This document shows positions 9,898 through 23,226 of a stretch of 64,000 nucleotides of DNA, in pieces. The DNA is from Bacteroidales bacterium (GTDB lineage: Bacteria; Bacteroidota; Bacteroidia; Bacteroidales; WCHB1-69). The notes beneath the pieces are model-generated. The model saw only the letters and a list, made by a program, of their open reading frames with translations. It ran no database searches and was not told the origin of the DNA. Each line of letters starts with the position of its first letter. Within the stretch, counting starts at the first letter, position 1. Both the position numbers and the translations under genes were made by a program. The stretch is from the NCBI GenBank assembly GCA_045130275.1, contig JBGUPL010000013.1, positions 3,900 through 67,899 on the forward strand, given 5' to 3'.

Positions 9898-10203
9898 TTA
9901 GTCAATCACCTCAAAAATATCGTCCAACTTGGTCATCTTGAAGACCTGCATCACATCGGGGCAGACGTTCCTCAGGTACATTTTTCCACCTTTAGCGGAG
10001 ACTTCTTTTCTAATTTTCAAAAAGATACGCAAACCGGAGCTGCTGATGAACGGCATCTTTCCACAGTCGAGAATGATGTTGCGATCCGCATGTTGCAGCA
10101 ACGGATCAATGGTGTCCGCTATTTGTTGTGCGGCTACAGTGTCCAACCGTCCGTCAAAAACGGCAGTAGTGGTGTTTCCCTCTTCTGTGATATTAATATT
10201 CAT
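9898..10203 (-). CDS. STAS-domain protein (anti-sigma-factor antagonist, RsbV/SpoIIAA-like)
   Basis: 101 aa. It has the typical STAS layout with the phosphorylatable-serine motif in PFISSSGLRIF. Its stop lies 2 nt from the PPTase start codon. Confidence 0.8.
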   Translation of the reverse strand: MNINITEEGNTTTAVFDGRLDTVAAQQIADTIDPLLQHADRNIILDCGKMPFISSSGLRIFLKIRKEVSAKGGKMYLRNVCPDVMQVFKMTKLDDIFEVID

Positions 10204-10267
10204 AACCTTCTAAAATATTGTATTTCAATAAATTATTTATCGTTGAAAAAATAATCAAAGCACAGCG

Positions 10268-10275
10268 CAAAGATA
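10268..10275 (-). promoter_or_regulatory. Candidate Bacteroidota -7 box (TATCTTTG) for the STAS-PPTase-porin-NRPS operon
   Basis: Plus strand caaagata equals TATCTTTG on the minus strand, matching the TAnnTTTG consensus. It lies 65 nt upstream of the STAS ATG. Confidence 0.5.
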
Positions 10276-10313
10276 ATGTTTTTCTTTTAAACCTCAAAAA
10301 CAACCTTGATTTT

Positions 10314-10376
10314 CTATTGCCTGTTGCCTATTGCCTGTTGCCTATTGCCTATTGCCTGTTGCCTGTTGCCTGTTGC
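10314..10376. repeat. Heptamer tandem array, 9 units of CTATTGC/CTGTTGC
   Basis: Nine contiguous 7-nt units counted directly. The array covers the last 21 codons and the stop of the sensor gene. Confidence 0.95.
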
Positions 10377-12434
10377 CTGTATCTTCATCCTCAATACATT
10401 CTGCCCGTTTTCGTGCGCATATTCCACCTGATCCATAATCGTCCTGATAAGATGGATACCTAAGCCACCGATCTGCCGTTCCTCTAATGGAACGTCGAGG
10501 TTGACCTCTTTTTTTTGCAAAGGATTAAACGGCGCGCCTTCGTCAATGAGGGTGGCACAAATCTGCCCGTCCATAACCTCCAGGGAAAGCTCCACGGTGC
10601 CCTTTTCACCTTCAGGATAAGCATACATGATGACATTGGTCGCGGCCTCCTCCAGCGCGAGGTTCAACTGCGGCAACAACGACATGTCAAGATTCTCTTG
10701 CTTGAAATAATCGTTCAGGAAAGGTTCCAACTTGTAGAGTTCCTCGATATTGTTGCTCATGCTCAGGGTATTATTGCCGCCTTTCGTGAAACGGACGGCC
10801 AGCATGGTGAGGTCGTCGCTCTGCTCGGCTTCCCCCACAAAGGTCTGTACCGCCAGCCGCATCTTTTCGACCTTCTCTTGAGCTGTCGCTCTGCAGTACT
10901 CCGTTGCAATTTCCAACGCTCTCGACTCCCCGAAAAGTTCCTTTTGGGTGTTCTCGGCTTCGGTCAAGCCGTCGGTGTAGAGGAACAGGGTGTCTCCGGG
11001 CAAAAGGGCCACCTCGCAAGACGTGTATTCAGCATCAGCATCAACCCCAAGGATAAGAGAAGGCGCGCTGTCCAAAAACTTCACCTTCCCGTCACGGATG
11101 ACAATCGGCGGATTATGCCCGGCATTGCAATAACGGATCATGCCTGTGGATAAATCCATGACACCTATGAACATTGTGATGAACATAATGTCGGGGTTGT
11201 TGTCGCTGATTGAGGCGTTGAGCGCCTGCATGATGTGTTCGGGGCGGCTGTCGCGGGCGGACAGGGTGCGGAACAGACTATGGGCGATGGCCATCAACAA
11301 TGCCGCCGGCACCCCTTTGCCGGAGACATCCCCGATGCAGAACAACAGCTGGTTGTCATGCACATAATAGTCGTACAAATCGCCGCCGACAAACTTGGCT
11401 GGGATCTGCAACCCCTTGATATCGATGGTTTTGATGGATTTCGTCAACGTTTCGGACGGCAACATCGCCTGCTGGATGTTTCTGGCGATGGAAAGCTCAT
11501 CCTCGATATGCTGTTCCTTCAAACGCACCTCGTTAAATTTCCACAAATTCTGCACCGAACGGTACGCAATGAAGAAGACCGTCAAAACGCCTGTGAAGGC
11601 CAAAATAGAGAAAAACAGCGTTGCCATCCTTAACCGATGGTACATGTCGGCGTTGGAAATCGTAATGGTAAGGACCATGTCCTTGCCATCAATAGCCTCT
11701 GAGAAGACATGATATCTGCCTTTCGTCTTGGGCACTGACGGTGGCGCCACCAGTACAGAACCGTCTGTGGTGACTAATGTACAGAAACTATGAGGATAGA
11801 GCTTTATGTTGCTGACAATACTGGCAAGCGTGTCGAGGGTGACATCCGTGCAGATAACGCCTACCGTTTCGCCTGTACTGTCGCTGATCGGGAGACAGTA
11901 GGAAATCATGTATGCCATCCCGCCGGCATTGTCGTAGTAGGGAGCACTCCAAAAGCCTTTCTCCGACGCCAGTCCTTTCTTGAACCAGTCCATTTGGAGA
12001 TAGTCATGTTCCTCACTCCCCAACTGGGTGACGAACAAGGTGTCGAGATTCTTCCGATGGCCGGCATAGGTTTCATACCATCGACCCTCATTGGGATAGT
12101 AGTTTTCTTTGAAGGCGACGCCTGCACCCATAATGTGTGAACTGGACTCCACCGTGTGATATGCAATGTCGTACATTGCTTCAGGGTCGTCAATCATGTA
12201 TTCGGCCATCGGCCCAATGGAGTTCACAACGGTTTCTATCTTACCCAAACATCTGTTAATCGAAGCTTCAGCGTTCTTCAAGGTCATTTCCACCCGTTTT
12301 TCAACTGACCTGACTTCCTGTTTCCTAATATAAAAGTAGTACTTGATTCCAACCAAAATCAAGGCCAGAACGGCAATGAGAATCTTCAGGAGTTCTTTCT
12401 TTGCGAATTGGTATTTGTCAATAGGATAGGACAT
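10314..12434 (-). CDS. Membrane sensor combining a periplasmic Cache-like domain, a PP2C (SpoIIE/RsbU-type) phosphatase and a C-terminal HATPase (RsbW/SpoIIAB-type kinase)
   Basis: 706 aa. There are two TM segments (about aa 17-37 and 272-292) around an extracytoplasmic domain of roughly 230 aa. PP2C motifs: GGDLYDY, GDVSGKGVPAALLMA (nt 11293-11334) and LYTDGLTEA...DDLTMLAV. Kinase motifs: LEEAATNVIMYAY and GGLGIHLIRTIMD. The C-terminal tail QATGNRQQAIGNRQQAIGNRQ is encoded by the repeat array. Confidence 0.85.
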   Translation of the reverse strand: MSYPIDKYQFAKKELLKILIAVLALILVGIKYYFYIRKQEVRSVEKRVEMTLKNAEASINRCLGKIETVVNSIGPMAEYMIDDPEAMYDIAYHTVESSSHIMGAGVAFKENYYPNEGRWYETYAGHRKNLDTLFVTQLGSEEHDYLQMDWFKKGLASEKGFWSAPYYDNAGGMAYMISYCLPISDSTGETVGVICTDVTLDTLASIVSNIKLYPHSFCTLVTTDGSVLVAPPSVPKTKGRYHVFSEAIDGKDMVLTITISNADMYHRLRMATLFFSILAFTGVLTVFFIAYRSVQNLWKFNEVRLKEQHIEDELSIARNIQQAMLPSETLTKSIKTIDIKGLQIPAKFVGGDLYDYYVHDNQLLFCIGDVSGKGVPAALLMAIAHSLFRTLSARDSRPEHIMQALNASISDNNPDIMFITMFIGVMDLSTGMIRYCNAGHNPPIVIRDGKVKFLDSAPSLILGVDADAEYTSCEVALLPGDTLFLYTDGLTEAENTQKELFGESRALEIATEYCRATAQEKVEKMRLAVQTFVGEAEQSDDLTMLAVRFTKGGNNTLSMSNNIEELYKLEPFLNDYFKQENLDMSLLPQLNLALEEAATNVIMYAYPEGEKGTVELSLEVMDGQICATLIDEGAPFNPLQKKEVNLDVPLEERQIGGLGIHLIRTIMDQVEYAHENGQNVLRMKIQATGNRQQAIGNRQQAIGNRQ

Positions 12435-12493: not shown

Positions 12494-14419
<1,926 letters not shown>

Positions 14420-14452
14420 TATGGGAGACAGGGTTCAACGTTCAAGGATCGA

Positions 14453-15631
14453 TTAGGATTGCCGCAGCAACTCCATCGGATCCTCCTTCTGGTTTTCTTC
14501 ATAGGAAACTTTGCCGATATTCAAGAGCATACCTACGGCACATCCCGAGACAAACAGGGAGGCGCCGCCGCTGCTGATGAACGGGAGCGTCTGTCCCGTG
14601 GTGGGCAGGAGCTCGCAGTTCACCCCGATATGCACCAGTGCCTGGCAGGTGAACCAGAAGCCGATGCCGAAGGCCAACAGCCGCCCGAATGTGCCTGTCG
14701 CCTCCTTGGCGATTTTCCGGGATCTATAAAAGATGATGAGATAGGCCAGCAATACCGCCACTCCCACCACAATGCCTGTCTCCTCAAACAAAGACGCGAA
14801 GGCATAATCGGTCTCCTTCTCCGGCAACCGGTTTTTGATGACCCCTTTGCCGGGACCCGCGGGATTGAAGCCCGACCGGGCGATGGCCGTCCGCGCCAAA
14901 ATCATCTGATCGCCATAACCGTTGGTGTTATCCTTGGTGACAAAATACTCAAGTCTGTTGATGAACGTCGCCATTCGCCCGAACTTCGACTGTTTCTCCT
15001 CACTGAGATTCACCGCGACAATCATGGCCACGATCAACAATGCGGAGACGATCCCGAGCATTCCGGCAATGTCACGCAATTTGAACCCTCCAATGAAAAA
15101 CAACACCAGACCTGTTACAAAGAGGATAATGGCCGTGGACATATTCATCGTAGCTATGCACAAACAGAAAAACGAGAGCAACAGAAACAGGTACCGGACA
15201 TTGTTCGGGGTGATTTCCCCATGATTATGGTACAACCGCGCAATATAATTGGCGATATAGAATATTATCAAGAACCCAATAATGTAGAAAGTCTGCACGT
15301 CACGGCCAAAAATGGTGACGCCGCGCACGGCTTGTGAAAGCATGGTCAGCACCAACAGCACCACAGCCAAAAGGAGCAGGAACGGAGCCGCCACCCCAAC
15401 CTTCCGATAATCGAATTGGTACACCAAGAACATCCCGACATAGCCGAACAACAGATGTTTGAGATGCTGGAGAACCACGGCTCCGCGCATGCTGTAAACC
15501 ATCACGATGGATATAGCCGTCAGGAAAACCACAAGGATCAGGATCACCTTGTCGGTTTTCAGCGTAATCCGCCGCAGGAAAGACATCTTCGGCAACGGGG
15601 AAACGGTCGGGCTTGAGGTATCTGCATCCAT
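14453..15631 (-). CDS. ftsW: SEDS-family peptidoglycan glycosyltransferase FtsW
   Basis: Polytopic membrane protein with LPFISSGGASL near the C-terminus, in the dcw position after murD. The start is set at internal ATG 15631 (MDADTSS...) because the longer ORF would overlap the upstream gene by 122 nt. Confidence 0.85.
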   Translation of the reverse strand: MDADTSSPTVSPLPKMSFLRRITLKTDKVILILVVFLTAISIVMVYSMRGAVVLQHLKHLLFGYVGMFLVYQFDYRKVGVAAPFLLLLAVVLLVLTMLSQAVRGVTIFGRDVQTFYIIGFLIIFYIANYIARLYHNHGEITPNNVRYLFLLLSFFCLCIATMNMSTAIILFVTGLVLFFIGGFKLRDIAGMLGIVSALLIVAMIVAVNLSEEKQSKFGRMATFINRLEYFVTKDNTNGYGDQMILARTAIARSGFNPAGPGKGVIKNRLPEKETDYAFASLFEETGIVVGVAVLLAYLIIFYRSRKIAKEATGTFGRLLAFGIGFWFTCQALVHIGVNCELLPTTGQTLPFISSGGASLFVSGCAVGMLLNIGKVSYEENQKEDPMELLRQS

Positions 15632-15641
15632 AACAACACTG

Positions 15642-16199
15642 TTAAAGTTGTGCAACAGAAGCTTTGAAACGTTCGCCGCGTTCCCTGTAGGTGACCTGGC
15701 CGTTGCCGTGGACGCCCGGAGCATACAACACCGCATCGCCTTTCTGGCAGGAATAGAATGCATGGTTCACTGCATCCTCCATGCTCATGGTCATCATCAC
15801 CGGAATGCCCAACTCCGCAATTCTTTGGTAAACATCAATGCTGTACACGCCTTGCAGCACCACCTCCTTGACCTTTTGTTGCGCCTCTTTCAGGACATCC
15901 TCGCTCAAAAGGTCCGGGGAATCGATGTTGGTGATCCATACGGTGGGTTTGGTCATGGACTGCAACGAATACCAAACGGCATTTGCCGTGGTGGAACGCG
16001 CATCATCGATGAAATCCACGCCCGCGAAGCTCTTGACGTGCTCCAATTTGTGGGCGCTGCCCTCGAAATCGGACAACGATTCGGCTATATTTTTCTGACG
16101 CAGGCGGATCAGCTGTTCTGACAAAGTCCCAACCCGTGGATTGGATGTCTCTCTGGCTTGTTCGAACAAGCGAAAACTGTTATTCTTCTTTGTAGGCAT
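15642..16199 (-). CDS. MurD C-terminal-domain-like protein (185 aa) occupying the murD slot; ligase N-terminal and ATPase domains are absent
   Basis: FEGSAHKLEHV...GVDFIDDARSTTANAVWYSLQSM resembles the MurD pattern F.G..HR.E.V...GV.FINDSKATN. However, NDSKATN, the GG.DKG motif and the SP.CASFD motif are replaced by DDARSTT, TNIDSP and APGVHGNG. Only 62 nt separate this ORF from the mraY stop. Confidence 0.6.
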   Translation of the reverse strand: MPTKKNNSFRLFEQARETSNPRVGTLSEQLIRLRQKNIAESLSDFEGSAHKLEHVKSFAGVDFIDDARSTTANAVWYSLQSMTKPTVWITNIDSPDLLSEDVLKEAQQKVKEVVLQGVYSIDVYQRIAELGIPVMMTMSMEDAVNHAFYSCQKGDAVLYAPGVHGNGQVTYRERGERFKASVAQL

Positions 16200-16260
16200 A
16201 ATGGTTTGTGGTTTGTTATTTATTGTCTAAGGTTTTGATTTTAAGTCCAGGCCCGAAGTT

Positions 16261-17523
16261 TTATCGGATTTTCAGTGTCGCAATGGCCAACACCGCAAGG
16301 AGCATGCTGACCACAATGAACCGTTGCACGATTTTCGATTCATGCATCCCTTTTTTCTGAAAATGGTGATGCAGCGGCGACATCAGGAATATACGCCGGC
16401 CTTCGCCGTAACGTTTTTTGGTGTATTTGAAATAAGACACTTGCATAATCACCGACAGGGACTGAGCCAGATAAATCCCACACAGGATCGGGATAAGCAG
16501 CTCTTTGCGGATGATGATGCAGGATACTGCCACGATACCGCCGAGGGTGAGGCTTCCTGTGTCGCCCATGAACACCTGCGCCGGATAGCAGTTCCACCAA
16601 TAGAAACCGATACAGGCGCCGATCACGGCCGAAACGAAAATCACCAACTCCCCGATATTGGGGATATACATGATGTTCAGATAATTGGCGAAAATCACAT
16701 TTCCCGACACATAAGCGAGAATGGCTATACCAACAGCAACAGAGGCGGTTGTACCGGTCGCCAGGCCATCCAGCCCGTCAGTGAGGTTCGCCCCGTTGGA
16801 GACTGCCGCGATAATGAAAACGATTATCGGGATGAACAACAGGAACGACCACTTCCCGGATTTGTCACCCATCCAACGGGTAAGTGCAGCGTAATCCATC
16901 TCGTGGCTTTTCACAAAAGGAATCGTGGTCTTGGAAGAGTGATGGGGCTCATCGAAAAGTTTGGGTGTGTGCGCGTTACCTTGATTCTCCACTTGGAGCA
17001 ACTCCCCGGATGTGACTTGGGTCACTTGCTGCTTCTGGACAGTTTTCTCGCAAATGACAGCACTCGGATGAAAATACATGACCGCGCCGACCACCAAACC
17101 AAGCAGAATCTGTCCCAACAACTTCTTGCGTGGCGAAAGTCCTTCCTTGTTCTTCTTGAAAACCTTGATATAGTCATCGGCAAATCCCAGCATTCCTAAC
17201 CACAGAGTGGTGAAAATCATCAAAATGACATAGATATTCCGCAATTCACAAAGCAGAAGCACCGGAACGAGTATGGCGGCAATGATGATGAGCCCGCCCA
17301 TCGTGGGGGTGCCGGCTTTCTCACTCTGCCCCGCCAGTCCCAACTCTCTGACACTCTCCCCTATTTGCTTTTTTTTCAGGTATTTGATGAAAAACTTACC
17401 AAAGAAAATAGAGATGATCAATGCCAGTACAAAGGCGGAAACGGAACGGAAGGAAATATATTGGAAGACACCCGTGCCGGGGTATCTTTGTGTATGCAGC
17501 CAAGAGAATAAATAATATAGCAT
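16261..17523 (-). CDS. mraY: Phospho-N-acetylmuramoyl-pentapeptide transferase MraY
   Basis: 420-aa polytopic membrane protein with GTPTMGG, ADDYIKV, NLTDGLDGLA and PLHHHF motifs. Confidence 0.92.
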   Translation of the reverse strand: MLYYLFSWLHTQRYPGTGVFQYISFRSVSAFVLALIISIFFGKFFIKYLKKKQIGESVRELGLAGQSEKAGTPTMGGLIIIAAILVPVLLLCELRNIYVILMIFTTLWLGMLGFADDYIKVFKKNKEGLSPRKKLLGQILLGLVVGAVMYFHPSAVICEKTVQKQQVTQVTSGELLQVENQGNAHTPKLFDEPHHSSKTTIPFVKSHEMDYAALTRWMGDKSGKWSFLLFIPIIVFIIAAVSNGANLTDGLDGLATGTTASVAVGIAILAYVSGNVIFANYLNIMYIPNIGELVIFVSAVIGACIGFYWWNCYPAQVFMGDTGSLTLGGIVAVSCIIIRKELLIPILCGIYLAQSLSVIMQVSYFKYTKKRYGEGRRIFLMSPLHHHFQKKGMHESKIVQRFIVVSMLLAVLAIATLKIR

Positions 17524-17534
17524 ATCTTTCTGAT

Positions 17535-19007
17535 TTATTGAATGTTGAAATTGGCTTTTAGTTCTTCTGTATCATCAAAATGGTGTTTGACGTGGTTGAT
17601 TTCCTGATAGTTCTCATGCCCTTTTCCCGCCACAAGAAGCACTCCTTGCGGTTGCAACATCATGCAGGCCGTCTTGATGGCCTCGCGACGGTTCTCAATG
17701 ACCAACACCTGCTTGGATTTCGCTGCGGGGACGCCTTTCAACATGTCGTTCAGAATGGCTTGAGGATCTTCGGTACGAGGATTGTCGGAGGTAAGCAACA
17801 CTTTGGAACTGTAACGGCAGGCAATTTCAGCCATTTCAGGGCGTTTCAGCGCGTCCCTGTCTCCTCCGCAGCCCACCACTGTAATCACCTCAGCCCCTTT
17901 GCCGACGATGTCGCGGATGGTTTTCAACACATTTTCAAGGGCATCTGGTGTATGCGCATAGTCCACAATGGCCGTGCCTCCCGCTTCATTGTGCAACATC
18001 TGGAAACGACCCGCCGCACTGTCCAGCATACTCATTTTCGTCAGCACCATGTCCTTGTCCAGACCCAACAGAACTGCTGCCCCATAGATGGCCAAGAGAT
18101 TGTATGCATTGAACTTGCCGCAAAGCTTGAAATAGACCTCCCGGTCGTTGATCCTCATGTGGAGACCGGTGAAGGCGTTTTCCATCACCAAACCTTTGAA
18201 ATCGGCGGCGGTACGGAGACTGTATGTATGAACGGCCGCCTTGGTGTTCTGCACCATCACCCGACCGTTTTTGTCATCGACATTGGTAAGGGCGAAGGCC
18301 GTTTTAGGCAATTTGTCAAAGAAGGACTTCTTGGCCGCGATGTAATTGGCGAACGTCTTGTGGAAATCAAGGTGATCGTGGGTGATGTTACTGAAGATCG
18401 CACCGGCGAAACGCAATCCGGAGACCCGATGTTGGCAAAGCGCATGCGAACTGACTTCCATGAAGCAGTACTCGCACTGGCTCTCAACCATCTGGGAGAG
18501 CAATTTGTTGAGTTCTACCGCGTCAGGCGTGGTGTGGGTAGCAGGAATCGTTTCATCCCCCACCCTATTGACAATTGTGGAGAGCAGACCCGCCTTGTGA
18601 CCTGCCAACATAAAGAGACGGTGAAGGAGGGTGACCGTAGTGGTCTTGCCGTTGGTTCCGGTGATTCCAACCAGCTTCAGTTTGCGGCTCGGATGGTCGA
18701 AAAAAGCATCTGCAAGCAGGCCCAACGCCACGGAACTGTCCGCCACCTTGATGTAACATACATGCTCGTCAAGTGTGTCGGGAAGCGTCTCGCACACCAC
18801 GGCGCGGCATCCCTGTGCGATGGCGGCCGGAATGTACTTGTGTCCATCCGTCTGCGTACCACGCTGTGCCACATAGAGTTGCGTAGTGCCTTCGGGCTGG
18901 ACCGACACGACACGAGAGTCAAACAGTATTTCCGAAATGTTCAACTCCGGAAACCCCGTCAGCTCATAAGAGCGCAACGACTTCAGCAGTATATCCAATG
19001 GTTTCAT
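17535..19007 (-). CDS. murE: UDP-N-acetylmuramoyl-tripeptide synthetase MurE
   Basis: 490 aa with GITGTNGKTT and the Mur ligase central and C-terminal domains (VDYAHTPDAL, GCGGDRD...KR). It sits in the dcw position. Confidence 0.9.
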   Translation of the reverse strand: MKPLDILLKSLRSYELTGFPELNISEILFDSRVVSVQPEGTTQLYVAQRGTQTDGHKYIPAAIAQGCRAVVCETLPDTLDEHVCYIKVADSSVALGLLADAFFDHPSRKLKLVGITGTNGKTTTVTLLHRLFMLAGHKAGLLSTIVNRVGDETIPATHTTPDAVELNKLLSQMVESQCEYCFMEVSSHALCQHRVSGLRFAGAIFSNITHDHLDFHKTFANYIAAKKSFFDKLPKTAFALTNVDDKNGRVMVQNTKAAVHTYSLRTAADFKGLVMENAFTGLHMRINDREVYFKLCGKFNAYNLLAIYGAAVLLGLDKDMVLTKMSMLDSAAGRFQMLHNEAGGTAIVDYAHTPDALENVLKTIRDIVGKGAEVITVVGCGGDRDALKRPEMAEIACRYSSKVLLTSDNPRTEDPQAILNDMLKGVPAAKSKQVLVIENRREAIKTACMMLQPQGVLLVAGKGHENYQEINHVKHHFDDTEELKANFNIQ

Positions 19008-19081: not shown

Positions 19082-21406
19082 TCAGGGATCAAGATAGATT
19101 TTCACGATTCCTGACGAATTATCAAGCACTTGCGATTTGACGCGGCCTTTTCCTGAGATTCTAACTTTGTAGCCGGCACGGATAAGTTCCGTGACAGCAT
19201 CGGAGGCGAGCATACCCCGCACATCGGGCATTTTCTGGTACTGAGTCAGCGGCAGCGCGCGCACTGAGACGTGGCGGTTCGTGTCTGCCGCATCCACCCG
19301 GAGATAAGGCGCTGGCGTTTCGTAATCCACTGTATCATAGCCCAAACCGTTCAGCAGGGTGTTGAAGTATTTCCTGCGGATGGGGGCCGTGCGTCCCAGC
19401 GGCGTGAACGGGAAATCTGCGGCACTGCGTGTGGCACTGTAGTTGGAGCTGTTCATGATGCTGCGGGCAATGCGCGCGAAAGCATCAACAGCCACACTAC
19501 TCATCTGAGGCACACCGTAGATATAGACAATGACGGTGTATTGCGGCCTGTCCATCGGGAAGTAGCCACAGAAGGAGACCGCGTTGATATCCTTCCTGTA
19601 GCAACCCATCTGCTCGTCCCAAATGTCGCGGGTTCCCGTCTTGCCTGCGAACATGCAGTTCTCGTCACGGTACCGGTAGGCTGTCCCGTGTTCACCCCAC
19701 ACCACTTGCTCCAGATAATAGCGTGCCTTCCGGACAGTGGAAGCAGAGGCTATGGAATCCATAAGTACCTGTGGCTCAAAACGTTGAACGGTATCATACA
19801 TATCCGTGACATAACGGACAAACATAGGTGCCATCATCTTTCCATCGTTGGCAATGGCGTTGTAATAGATCAACGTTCGGATAATCGGGATGTTGAAGCC
19901 CGCCCCGAAACAAGTTGCATAGTAGGTGTTAAAATCGTTGGTGCCGTCCTTGATGCGGGCAGGCAGAAGGTCGCCGAGCTGGCTGTGCACCGTGTCCAGG
20001 AGACCGAACTTCCTGAGCTGCTCGAGATAGTTGGCGAACCCCCGTTTCCCGTACGTGTCAAAGATCATCTTGGCTATACCGACATTCGACGAACGTTTGA
20101 ACACCTCAAGGGCAGAGACGTCGAGCACCGGATAGTCATGGTCAACCTTCGTGTACTTGAGGATTTTTCCGGATTTTGTGGGGAATTCGAACGTGTTCTT
20201 GTAGATTCTGTACCTGCCGACGGTGTCATTGGGGACTTTCTCGAGGTATGCCAGCAGGGAAGCCAGTTTGAAGGTGGAGCCCGGCTCGACCTTGGCATTG
20301 AGGGCATACTCCATGCTTTCGGTATAGTAGGAAGCGTCAGGCGCCGCACGGCGCAGGTTGGAAATGGCCTTGATCTCACCGGTCTTGGTCTCCATCACGA
20401 TGGCGCAGCCCCACTCCGCATTCAACTCCGAAAGTTTCCGGGAGAGTTCGTTGTGTACAGCGTGCTGTATTTCCAACTTCAAGGTAGTGTGGATGTTATA
20501 GCCATCGACAGGGTCCATTCTGTCCCGAAGCGGCACTTTGGCATGGTTAAGTTCAAGGTATTTCTTACTGCCCTCGACACCGCCCAGAATGTCGTTCATG
20601 GAATGCTCCAGCCCGTATTGGCGTTCCGGACTCTCCACACCGAGAGTGCGCTTGGCCATCTCCCCATAGGGGTTAATACGCACATTCGCAGACACATAGT
20701 TGAAGTGCGGATGCATCACTGCCACCCGGAGGGTGTCATAGGTGGGCGCCGCTTCGACACCTTGGCGTTTCGCTCTTCTTTTCTCCCGTTTGCTTATCTT
20801 CTTGTCGGCCACGACAACCGTCTTGAACAGATAAGGCCGGTTTTTGATGAATGCGGTATCGACGCCCATCACCCACGACTTTTCATCCCAATCCTTCACG
20901 GGGAACAGGGTGGCATAGTGCTTGTTCTTGACATTCTTTTTGAAGAAGTCGTAGTAGTAATCGGCATCATATCTCGGGAAACGGTCTTTGAATTGCAGAT
21001 AAAAGTCATCGGCCAGTTTGCGGAAGATGGAGTCGAAGGCGTTCGGATTCTTGCTGAGCGTGTCGCCATACTCTTTCACAAAGCCTTTGCCGTCGAAGGC
21101 CACCTCGAAAACGGTGAAATTCGCCACCAGCACACGGCCGTGGTCATCATAGATCTCGCCGCGGACAGGCCGCAGGGTGTTCTCGCGCACGAAACAGTAG
21201 GTGTCGTCGTTCGCCAGATCCTCCCAGCCGGGCTCGGTGGTGTCCACACATTTGTCGGACGTGCCGGAAGCGACAGCGCGTTCCACGATGGAAAGGTAGA
21301 GGATCTTGGCCAAGCAGGCAACGCCGAACAACAGCATCAGCAGATAAACCACCGACATTCTCCGCAAGGTGGTAGGAGAGGCCTCTTTTCTTCTACTTGT
21401 TTTCAT
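19082..21406 (-). CDS. ftsI: Class B penicillin-binding protein (FtsI/PBP3-like) with a C-terminal PASTA-like domain
   Basis: 774 aa with an N-terminal TM anchor. Transpeptidase motifs STFK, SSN and KTGT are present. The last ~60 aa (MPDVRGMLASDAVTELIRAGYKVRISGKGRVKSQVL...) fit the PASTA pattern. Confidence 0.88.
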   Translation of the reverse strand: MKTSRRKEASPTTLRRMSVVYLLMLLFGVACLAKILYLSIVERAVASGTSDKCVDTTEPGWEDLANDDTYCFVRENTLRPVRGEIYDDHGRVLVANFTVFEVAFDGKGFVKEYGDTLSKNPNAFDSIFRKLADDFYLQFKDRFPRYDADYYYDFFKKNVKNKHYATLFPVKDWDEKSWVMGVDTAFIKNRPYLFKTVVVADKKISKREKRRAKRQGVEAAPTYDTLRVAVMHPHFNYVSANVRINPYGEMAKRTLGVESPERQYGLEHSMNDILGGVEGSKKYLELNHAKVPLRDRMDPVDGYNIHTTLKLEIQHAVHNELSRKLSELNAEWGCAIVMETKTGEIKAISNLRRAAPDASYYTESMEYALNAKVEPGSTFKLASLLAYLEKVPNDTVGRYRIYKNTFEFPTKSGKILKYTKVDHDYPVLDVSALEVFKRSSNVGIAKMIFDTYGKRGFANYLEQLRKFGLLDTVHSQLGDLLPARIKDGTNDFNTYYATCFGAGFNIPIIRTLIYYNAIANDGKMMAPMFVRYVTDMYDTVQRFEPQVLMDSIASASTVRKARYYLEQVVWGEHGTAYRYRDENCMFAGKTGTRDIWDEQMGCYRKDINAVSFCGYFPMDRPQYTVIVYIYGVPQMSSVAVDAFARIARSIMNSSNYSATRSAADFPFTPLGRTAPIRRKYFNTLLNGLGYDTVDYETPAPYLRVDAADTNRHVSVRALPLTQYQKMPDVRGMLASDAVTELIRAGYKVRISGKGRVKSQVLDNSSGIVKIYLDP

Positions 21407-21809
21407 GAGTCCGCTCCTTTCTTTTAAACCAACGGCGCTTCTCCACCGGCTTCGGGGTCTCTTTCACCGTAAACGTGTGTTTCTCGTCTGTCACAAATCC
21501 CCTTTCCTGCATCTTCTGGATGAGGATTTTGTTTTTCTCGTAGGGGATGAACTGATTGTTCGCTTTCAGTTTGCTGATTTCCGCTTTATACGTATTCTCC
21601 AGCTCCGTGATCTTCTTCTGTTTGACATGGATACGCTGCTCGCTGACCACCAAAATGGTGACCAGGATCAGCACGAAAAAGAAATACAAGTACCATGGAC
21701 GGACTTTCTTTTTCACCAAAATCTCACCTCCGAAGATATTGGAGAAGAATTCACCGAAACGGGTGCGTTCTTTCGGCTGCTGTTGCGGATTATGAGAGGT
21801 GGTTTCCAT
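21393..21809 (-). CDS. FtsL-like single-pass division protein
   Basis: 138 aa with one TM (WYLYFFFVLILVTILVV) followed by a short coiled-coil. It lies between rsmH and ftsI. Confidence 0.6.
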   Translation of the reverse strand: METTSHNPQQQPKERTRFGEFFSNIFGGEILVKKKVRPWYLYFFFVLILVTILVVSEQRIHVKQKKITELENTYKAEISKLKANNQFIPYEKNKILIQKMQERGFVTDEKHTFTVKETPKPVEKRRWFKRKERTHENK

Positions 21810-22716
21810 GATTGATAGGGGTTATTTTCTCGGCGACGCGCAGTTTGGCGCTGCGGGCGCGAGGATTGACACTAATTTCTTCTTCATCAGGCTGAACGGC
21901 TTTCCTCGTGATGAGTTTGAACGGAGTCAGGGGATTGCCGTAAAAATCCTTCTCCACCTCGCCGTCCAGTTTTCCGGCACGCATGAAGTTCTTCACCATG
22001 CGGTCTTCCAAAGAATGGTAAGAGATGACGACCAGCCGGCCGCCAACTTTCAACGCTTCCAGGGCTTGCGTGAGAAAAGACTCCAAAACGGCCATTTCCT
22101 GGTTGACTTCGATGCGTATGGCCTGGAATATTTTGGAAAGGCTTTTATTCTCCTTCCCCCGCAACAACGACGGGCGAAGAGCCTCCACCAGTTGTCCGGT
22201 GGTGGTGATGGGCTGCTCCTCACGGGCTTTAAGGATGCGGCGGGCCAACGCACGAGCGTCGGAAAGCTCGCCGTATCGGTAGAACATGTCGGTCAGCGCC
22301 TTCTCATCGTATTGGTTCACAACATCTTGGGCCGATTTTCCGGATTGAGTGTTCATCCGCATGTCCAACACGCCGTCCTCGCGGTAGGAAAAGCCGCGTT
22401 CAGGGGTATCGAACTGATGGGAAGAGACCCCAAGGTCGGCCAAGATGCCGTCCACGGGAAGGACCTGATGATATTTAAGGAATCTGTTGAGATTCTTGAA
22501 ATTGGAAGGCACAAAAGTGAATCGCTCGTCCTCGATAAGTTGCGATTGCGCATCCGAATCCTGATCAAAAGCGACAAGACGGCCTTGCTGCAATTTCTGC
22601 ATGATGGAACGAGAATGACCACCGCCGCCATAAGTGACATCGACATAAGTGCCGTTGGGATTTGTAACTAAGTAATCTACAGATTGTTGAAGAAGGACCG
22701 GGTTATGATATTCCAT
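21790..22716 (-). CDS. rsmH: 16S rRNA (cytosine1402-N4)-methyltransferase RsmH
   Basis: 308 aa starting MEYHNPVLL..., with DVTYGGGGHS and LGVSSHQFD motifs. Confidence 0.92.
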   Translation of the reverse strand: MEYHNPVLLQQSVDYLVTNPNGTYVDVTYGGGGHSRSIMQKLQQGRLVAFDQDSDAQSQLIEDERFTFVPSNFKNLNRFLKYHQVLPVDGILADLGVSSHQFDTPERGFSYREDGVLDMRMNTQSGKSAQDVVNQYDEKALTDMFYRYGELSDARALARRILKAREEQPITTTGQLVEALRPSLLRGKENKSLSKIFQAIRIEVNQEMAVLESFLTQALEALKVGGRLVVISYHSLEDRMVKNFMRAGKLDGEVEKDFYGNPLTPFKLITRKAVQPDEEEISVNPRARSAKLRVAEKITPINHGNHLS

Positions 22717-23185
22717 TTTGGCCCTCCTTTTCCGTCAAATAGTGCCCGAGGTGCATCTCCTCGTTGAGTTTCTCAAAGTCTTCGGGCTGCATGTCGAACT
22801 TTTCGTGGTATTTCCGACTGTTCCACATTTCGATCTGCCCATTATCCAGCACCATAACCAACTCTTTGTCAATGGAATACATATCCATCAGCGGTTTAGG
22901 GATAACAATACGATGCTGGGCGTCGCATTCCAGCATGGCCGTGTTGCGCAGAAAGGCGTTGCGGTACAGTTTCACACGGGTCAGGTTGCGGTCAAGGGAA
23001 TTCATATAGTCCATCTGCTTGCGATAGGCTTTTTCGGACCAAAGCATAATGTACTCGCCGAAACCGTGCGTGACATAGAAAGTCTTGCGCTCATCTTCCG
23101 ACAGCGCACGCAAAAGAGCCGTGGGCAGCTTCAACCGCCCGCTCTTCTCTATCGAGACTTCCCAATATCCGTATTCCGTAGTCAT
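22703..23185 (-). CDS. mraZ: Transcriptional regulator MraZ
   Basis: Two SpoVT/AbrB-like halves (SGRLKLP... / HRIVIPKPL). The start is set at ATG 23185 because a -7 box overlaps the longer ORF start. Confidence 0.8.
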   Translation of the reverse strand: MTTEYGYWEVSIEKSGRLKLPTALLRALSEDERKTFYVTHGFGEYIMLWSEKAYRKQMDYMNSLDRNLTRVKLYRNAFLRNTAMLECDAQHRIVIPKPLMDMYSIDKELVMVLDNGQIEMWNSRKYHEKFDMQPEDFEKLNEEMHLGHYLTEKEGQNGIS

Positions 23186-23218
23186 TTTCCTTCCAAAAAA
23201 CCAGAATTTTTCAGACGA

Positions 23219-23226
23219 CAAAAATA
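23219..23226 (-). promoter_or_regulatory. Candidate -7 box (TATTTTTG) for the dcw operon
   Basis: Plus strand caaaaata, 34 nt upstream of the mraZ ATG at 23185, at the edge of a very AT-rich divergent region (23222-23570). Confidence 0.5.

Follow-up and report, generated by a model that had tools for sequence, protein, structure and literature searches.

The locus described here raised the question of what a gene of only 185 codons does in the place of murD, and why it has been kept there. MurD is among the most studied antibiotic targets and has been treated purely as an enzyme. The window, meaning the whole stretch of 64,000 nucleotides analyzed (contig JBGUPL010000013.1, positions 3,900 to 67,899), belongs to the MAG of an uncultured rumen Bacteroidales (GCA_045130275.1), which comprised 134 contigs and 3.19 Mb, with a completeness of 96% and a contamination of 3.8%. 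A preliminary description, made from the sequence alone, had proposed that the murD slot of the dcw cluster holds nothing but a diverged C-terminal domain of MurD, either repurposed, with a full-length murD elsewhere in the genome, or decaying as a relic.

The murD slot and its 185-aa product

The dcw cluster was encoded on the reverse strand and was headed by mraZ (22703-23221, -; TIGR00242, 54.7 bits), followed by rsmH (21790-22716, -; TIGR00006, 319.6 bits) and an FtsL-sized ORF (21393-21809, -), which had no HMM matches and was assigned from its position alone. Next came ftsI, encoding a PBP3-type transpeptidase (19082-21406, -; PF00905, PF03717, and PASTA), murE (17535-19007, -; NF001126, 600.8 bits), and mraY (16261-17523, -; 420 aa; TIGR00445, 321.9 bits against a cut-off of 192), while ftsW, of the SEDS family (14453-15631, -; PF01098, E 1.2e-42; TIGR02614, 179.6 bits), lay at the far end of the cluster. 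These matches bear out the earlier view that murE, mraY, ftsI, and ftsW are intact. Between mraY and ftsW, the ORF listing and the sequence held a single ORF of 185 codons (15642-16199, -), with an ATG start and a TAA stop, and no space for MurD domains 1 and 2, as had been claimed. The spacer reported between the mraY stop and this short gene was also present, although it measured 61 nt (16200-16260, -) and not 62 nt. The probable start of ftsW was the ATG at 15631-15629, with 10 nt between it and the short-gene stop. Scanning positions 14300-17700 for promoters and terminators gave counts not above those of shuffled sequence, and the spacers were empty. A 204-aa ORF antisense to the short gene (15507-16121, +) was judged to be spurious, given that homologues of the minus-strand frame evolve under purifying selection.

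In this genome the cluster stopped after ftsW, with murG, murC, and ftsQAZ not coming next; murG was found on contig C56, murC on C29, murF on C9, and an mpl-like gene on another contig too. An ending at ftsW was a trait of this genus. An ABC-F ATPase gene (12494-14419, -; two ABC_tran domains and ABC_tran_Xtn) lay directly past ftsW, and beyond it (9898-12434, -) were a 706-aa fusion of a Cache/PDC sensor, a SpoIIE phosphatase, and an HATPase_c_2 kinase, then a STAS-domain protein (9898-10203), the two making up a partner-switching module.

Residues 27-182 of the 185-aa protein matched positions 283-439 of the 441 in the murD model TIGR01087 (E 4.2e-24), with a score of 85.4 bits that was below the equivalog cut-off of 211.95 bits because two thirds of the model are missing from the protein. 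Pfam PF02875 (Mur_ligase_C) matched weakly, at 18.6 bits (E 0.0035), under its gathering threshold of 28.4. The AF2 model, built with 33 homologues, predicted residues 50-185 with confidence (pLDDT 84-93) and residues 1-49 poorly. When this model was compared to the PDB with Foldseek, there were 53 matches with E ≤0.001, the best 33 of which were all MurD (7ti7 at E 1.7e-9, then 4buc, 7u35, 1eeh, and others), with a probability of 1.0 and a TMq of 0.57-0.66 for the MurD matches; below them were mostly MurC, MurE, Mpl, MurT, and pseudomurein ligases. The model therefore has the fold of Mur ligase domain 3. The matches also included 8qma_O, 8w9z_N, and 8ras_Q, which we take to be the plant MurE-like PAP11 chains of the plastid RNA polymerase (PEP) complex. 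The 185-aa protein is thus homologous to the last ~160 residues of MurD, with the same fold and in the same slot between mraY and ftsW; it comprises only domain 3 and, before it, the final helix of MurD domain 2. The identification as a MurD C-domain, for which an HMM check had been suggested, was upheld.

What was missing or replaced was examined in an alignment with full-length Bacteroidales MurD proteins. The 185-aa protein, which has no UDP-binding or ATPase domain, showed only gaps in the columns of the central-domain P-loop (GxxGKT/S), carbamylated Lys, and DH motif (His183). The strings quoted in the preliminary description (FEGSAHKLEHV, GVDFIDD, WYSLQSM, DDARSTT, TNIDSP, and APGVHGNG) were all found in the translation, and the motif replacements were placed as described, with IDDARSTT aligned to INDSKATN, TNIDSPDLLS to AGGVDKGNDY, and LYAPGVHGNG to LLSPACASFD. 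Thr321, Lys348, Ser415, Leu416, and Phe422 of E. coli MurD were taken as the residues of the D-Glu site, their roles being drawn in part from PMC8788868. The short protein did not have this site in full: the Thr was kept (DDARSTT), Lys348 was gone (TNIDSP for GGxDKG), Ser415 was gone (APGVHG for SPACAS), and Phe422 was replaced by an invariant Tyr171. The Lys of the NDSKATN motif (Lys319) was also replaced in the window's clade, whereas the C-terminal RG..F motif and the HR/KLE motif were retained. Judged from these alignments, the 185-aa protein cannot act as a ligase.

The MurD2/MurL route in this genome and across the order

One full-length MurD was present in the assembly (C65, 21026-22405, -; 459 aa; TIGR01087, 340 bits against a cut-off of 212), as the repurposing alternative had supposed. 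It had the motifs GTKGKST, NIYQEH, NDSISTI, and GGYDRG in place of GSNGKTT, NITPDH, NDSKATN, and GGxDKG of dcw-type MurDs and, by alignment, Glu, Arg, and Ile at the positions of E. coli D182, K348, and K319, respectively. The Glu and Arg are the residues of the MurD2 specificity switch; among Bacteroidales MurD2-type proteins the Glu was found in 13 of 14 and the Arg in 14 of 14, whereas none of 42 dcw-type MurDs had either. When the residues at the D182 and K348 positions are exchanged, the MurD2 of Xanthomonas, which ligates L-Glu, becomes a ligase for D-Glu, and K319T makes E. coli MurD accept L-Glu (PMC8788868).

An intact MurL homologue was located on contig C93 (34858-36174, +), matching positions 5-421 of the 447 in NF041275 with 256.9 bits. 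MurL homologues scored 257-261 bits, far under the 700-bit cut-off of this Xanthomonadales-specific model, so that the homologue lies outside the narrow Xanthomonadales equivalog. It was assigned to MurL on the homology over the model length, the genomic coupling to MurD2, and the absence of MurI. The tetranucleotide correlation of C93 was 0.88, against a contig median of 0.95; a congener also carried MurL and MurD2, which counts against C93 being contamination. Neither this genome nor any of the 25 genomes of its genus had glutamate racemase (MurI, TIGR00067), and no D-amino-acid transaminase scored above cut-off in this genome. By gene content, we infer that the organism uses the MurD2/MurL route, with L-Glu specificity and epimerase activity ascribed by homology. 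The route is that known from Xanthomonas oryzae (Feng et al., 2017; PMC8788868) as an alternative source of D-Glu; this genome likewise has both genes and no MurI, its MurD2 has the Glu and Arg in common with that of Xanthomonas, and its MurL has the PP-loop expected for AMP-yielding chemistry. The route forms the context of the short gene and is not its counterpart, and a leftover of canonical MurD is absent from the account in PMC8788868.

The two genes were unlinked in this genus (C93 and C65) and adjacent in most families. MurD2 was adjacent or fused to the MurL gene in 13 of 16 other families examined (L102-L117), being directly 3' of a PP-loop gene in 11 and fused to it in two more, with fusion proteins of 937 aa (G119; L102, 4107-6920, -) and 876 aa (G112; L103, 2599-5229, +). 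The PP-loop gene encoded ~460 aa with an IGGGKDS PP-loop and a CxxCxKC motif; it gave no match in Pfam and matched the MurL model NF041275 with E 1.6e-77. An AlgH-like DUF179 gene (PF02622, E 1e-44; L105, 3697-4275, -) was divergent from murL-murD2, with equivalents in nine further neighborhoods (L102, L104, L106-L108, L110, L111, L113, and L117); in this genome a DUF179 homologue was found on C29, ~4.4 kb upstream of murC.

The distribution of these genes was surveyed in 121 genomes, namely this one and a single representative for each of 120 further families in the order. MurD2-type proteins (≥39% identity) were present in 41 of the 121 genomes, MurL in those 41 and in G080, and MurI in 74, and not one genome had MurI together with MurD2 or MurL (MurL in 0 of 74 MurI-positive genomes). 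Short murD genes were found only in genomes without MurI; they occurred in 18 of 42 MurL-positive genomes, in none of the 74 with MurI, and in one of 78 lacking MurL (Fisher p 5e-9, uncorrected for phylogeny). A tree of MurE and MraY (900 columns) placed the MurD2 families, essentially, on one side of a single branch (SH-aLRT 98%). The Fisher p-values therefore overstate independence, and the pathway switch may have happened about once. In the MurI-positive genomes, a dcw MurD of ~445 aa was found in 72 of 74, that is, in all where the gene was found. In the dcw slot of the 41 MurD2-positive genomes there were 21 full-length MurDs, 17 genes of 176-192 aa, and in two cases nothing; G119, in which the gene was cut by a contig end, was probably full-length as well. 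The short form also occurred in G080, which has MurL, and in G038, and every short gene of the survey sat between mraY and ftsW. Since no remnant was seen in the two MurD2-positive genomes G109 and G144, the remnant is not indispensable everywhere. G078 was excluded as a short form, its ORF reaching the contig end with 72 further in-frame MurD residues.

Families with MurD2 and MurL and without MurI that retained canonical MurD numbered 21, the full-length dcw murD genes totaling 42 (L165-L206). The catalytic motifs of these 21 MurDs were all identical to those of the MurI-positive genomes. An intact canonical MurD in the absence of MurI implies either that D-Glu is obtained in some other way (by uptake or recycling) or that the enzyme serves a different purpose. 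Genome G038 (98% complete, 2.1 Mb) carried in its dcw slot a short remnant that was very degenerate (L158, G038:C4:296000-303500) and was placed with MurI-positive families on the MurE and MraY tree; MurI, MurD2, MurL, or any other MurD went undetected in it at the thresholds used.

The MurD2-type paralogue paired with MurL, the missing racemase, and the repeated truncation described below were beyond the view of the preliminary description. A 2021 review lists the MurD2/MurL pair for Xanthomonadales, a few Alphaproteobacteria, and Micromonosporaceae (PMC8788868), whereas here 41-42 of the 121 Bacteroidales families sampled, or about one in three, appear to make D-Glu by the 'Xanthomonas' route, among them lineages that are abundant in the rumen and gut. 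This has consequences for annotation, for proposed narrow-spectrum inhibitors of MurD2/MurL, and for metabolic models in which such MAGs are flagged for a missing MurI or a broken murD.

At least four independent truncations of murD

In a tree of the C-domain (167 columns), the short forms were interspersed with the full-length genes of MurD2-positive genomes. Six changes to the short state were required on this maximum-likelihood tree, at least two of which were forced by well-supported branches. Because the C-domain tree alone resolved the number of truncations poorly, the MurE and MraY tree was built, on which there were 12 changes to the short state, at least four of them forced by well-supported branches. 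A single clade of short forms was rejected in an AU test (p 0.035, delta lnL 114). Truncation thus arose at least four times independently.

The event could be followed within one genus, in which G145 had an intact 452-aa MurD and G075 a 182-aa gene starting from the homologous Met (G145, ...FEMTIEELALQGKHN...; G075, beginning MTIQELALQGKHN...). Compared to G145, ~800 nt had been deleted in G075, from the mraY stop to the conserved Met codon; identity between the two was 72% for the C-domains, 46.5% for FtsW, and 82% for the C-terminal parts of MraY. The shared start Met lies nine residues before the GxHNxxN motif, and 12 of the 19 short forms began there; it was found in 37 of the 42 full-length dcw MurDs. 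In related short-form loci, mraY and the short gene were separated by 4-111 nt. The 61-nt spacer of the window is the residue of the site where ~270 codons of murD once lay.

The remnants formed a series by age. Those of G075, G027, and G097 retained all C-domain motifs, which for G075 is explained by a very recent truncation, within a genus. Other remnants were partly changed. Strongly rewired remnants on long branches were those of the window's clade, G038, G080, G088, G100, and G112, with C-domain branches of 5.96 for G100, 3.58 for G038, and 3.08 for G112. In other families, the remnants on the longest branches may be decaying. The stem branch of the window's clade was 1.56 substitutions per site (support 100/100), consistent with the earlier reading of a long divergence and not a fresh deletion.

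Selection on the short gene and its possible role

A large protein database yielded 81 short homologues, nearly all of 184-187 aa, at 91% to 35% identity. Carriers in a scan of species-representative genomes were uncultured Bacteroidales of rumen, horse, human, and termite guts, digesters, and soil, and the carriers found were all MAGs. The gene order rsmH-ftsL-ftsI-murE-mraY-short gene-ftsW was seen at every locus long enough to be judged, and the slot between mraY and ftsW was constant in ~70 independently assembled relatives, including the complete 3.47-Mb chromosome OW818690.1. Among 33 homologues with identity down to 44%, 25 residues were invariant; those invariant in the window's clade included D66, W88-I89, P161-G162, and Y171-R172-G175-F178, and by alignment they map to loops homologous to the ATP- and D-Glu-facing loops of MurD. 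The former ligand face has therefore been rewired and yet is still the most constrained part of the protein, in keeping with a partner or a small molecule binding at that face.

Selection was estimated within the window's clade and, crudely, for one other pair. Over 44 pairs with unsaturated dS, Nei-Gojobori dN/dS was 0.062 for the short gene, compared to 0.056 for mraY, 0.063 for murE, 0.078 for ftsW, 0.085 for ftsI, and 0.139 for ftsL. Purifying selection thus constrains the short gene as strongly as it does mraY and murE. This answers the conservation check that had been proposed for relatives and decides between the two alternatives of the preliminary description: a decaying relic is ruled out for the window's clade, while the repurposed domain kept in the operon, with a full-length paralogue elsewhere, is supported. 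Purifying selection together with the lack of catalytic capacity points to a protein with a function other than ligation.

The explanation that we consider rather probable as a whole is that of a functional, non-catalytic remnant. The short gene would be what is left of canonical MurD, the ligase that adds D-glutamate. The alternative MurD2/MurL route would have been gained by the ancestor of many Bacteroidales families and glutamate racemase lost among its descendants, after which canonical MurD would have been dispensable as an enzyme, without catalytic value because free D-Glu was no longer made. Its first ~270 codons, for the UDP-binding and ATPase domains, would then have been deleted independently in several lineages, a deletional bias stripping the useless 5' part to the boundary of something still useful, and the surviving ORF would open at or near the conserved internal Met and code for domain 3 preceded by the final helix of domain 2. 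The remnant of the window's clade would then have changed quickly, losing Lys348, Ser415, and the Lys of NDSKATN, and would have come under purifying selection afterwards. Within this explanation, such an origin appears very likely. The conserved tail, held like its essential neighbors, probably has a second, non-catalytic role, and what is seen is a recurrent natural domain deletion in which domains 1 and 2 were discarded where MurD2/MurL took over ligation and domain 3 was kept beside ftsW.

The nature of that role can be proposed only tentatively. As a non-catalytic adaptor or ligand-sensing module, the remnant would keep a contact of the third domain of MurD within the cytoplasmic Mur-MraY-FtsW machinery, using the rewired former ligand-facing loops; an adaptor is an idea to which we give somewhat less than even weight, and a retained contact with FtsW, MraY, or MurE is the most economical guess. 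A contact role is plausible because MurD has been reported to bind the MurE-MurF complex with a Kd of ~0.8 μM and MurD-FtsW chimeras occur naturally (PMC10214165). These chimeras set the third domain of MurD against the N-terminus of FtsW, and the two genes adjoin here, which argues for a physical or regulatory link between their products; the chimeras differ, however, in having a full-length and presumably active MurD and in occurring in Proteobacteria and Actinobacteria, with no MurD-FtsW fusion in the Bacteroidales checked. Apparent fusions in G061, G105, and G102 were frame artefacts, the genes being separate. In a paper on MigC and MurD of A. baumannii, the interaction was mapped to domain 2 of MurD and not to domain 3. 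In the searchable literature, nothing was found on a truncated or stand-alone MurD domain 3, nor on MurL/MurD2 in Bacteroidales.

Several other explanations were weighed against that of a functional remnant. An assembly or binning artefact masking a full murD at 15600-16300 would be conceivable in a MAG of so many contigs, yet the same junction occurred in the ~70 independent assemblies from various studies and hosts, with a complete chromosome among them, and in 23 of 24 other genomes of the genus, so that we regard its probability as negligible. A decaying relic without protein function, whose ORF is kept for the expression of ftsW through translational coupling or embedded signals, would agree with the 10 nt between the short-gene stop and the ftsW start, with the high degeneracy and long branches of several remnants in other families, and with the two MurD2-positive genomes that have no detectable remnant. 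However, an ORF kept for coupling alone should have a dN/dS near 1 and not that of its essential neighbors, its length would hardly be as steady or its invariant residues as many, and the AF2 model is that of a complete domain predicted with confidence; this explanation is very unlikely. The remnant could also be the third ligase domain of a split enzyme, acting in trans with a two-domain protein, e.g., in the salvage of external D-Glu, and the young remnants of G075, G027, and G097 do keep every D-Glu-site motif of the C-domain. In this genome, however, no N-terminal-only MurD fragment was found, the Mur-ligase matches all being of normal length (432-490 aa) apart from one 840-aa frame, and the window's clade has lost Lys348 and Ser415; a split enzyme is thus largely refuted for this genome and highly improbable.

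Two further readings concern what the retained domain does. It could be a ligand sensor or regulator that still binds nucleotide or UDP-MurNAc-peptide at the old active-site face and tunes flux through MurD2, MurL, or MurE, or couples precursor supply to FtsW. The equivalent of Asp317 was kept in all 19 short forms, and the His-Arg/Lys of the HRLE motif in most. These most constant residues are ones that we take to be contacts of the ATP ribose and phosphates in E. coli MurD, and the invariant residues of the window's clade fall in loops homologous to the ligand-contacting ones. On the other hand, most ATP contacts come from the P-loop domain, which the short protein lacks, and the window's clade no longer has Lys348, Ser415, or Lys319. 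The reading also overlaps with that of a non-catalytic remnant instead of excluding it; we consider it unlikely. The linker helix and third domain might instead be a functional product in all Bacteroidales, made from an internal start within full-length murD, a reading that seems rather doubtful. Initiation at the conserved Met would give a non-catalytic C-terminal isoform acting at the MraY/FtsW step, of which the lineages that shifted ligation to MurD2/MurL would merely keep the coding region, and this would explain why independent deletions halted at one codon. The 21 nt before the conserved Met were 43% A and 11% G, close to true start regions (47% A, 13% G) and not to the 21 nt before other in-frame ATGs (33% A, 21% G); however, the codons of a Lys/Asn/Ile-rich peptide alone could account for this A-rich, G-poor composition.

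For a non-catalytic remnant of a Mur ligase, the nearest conceptual precedent is PAP11, which is likewise derived from a Mur ligase and has a structural role other than ligation. It differs in being eukaryotic, in deriving from MurE, in having a known partner, in keeping all its domains, and in not being a single-domain remnant.
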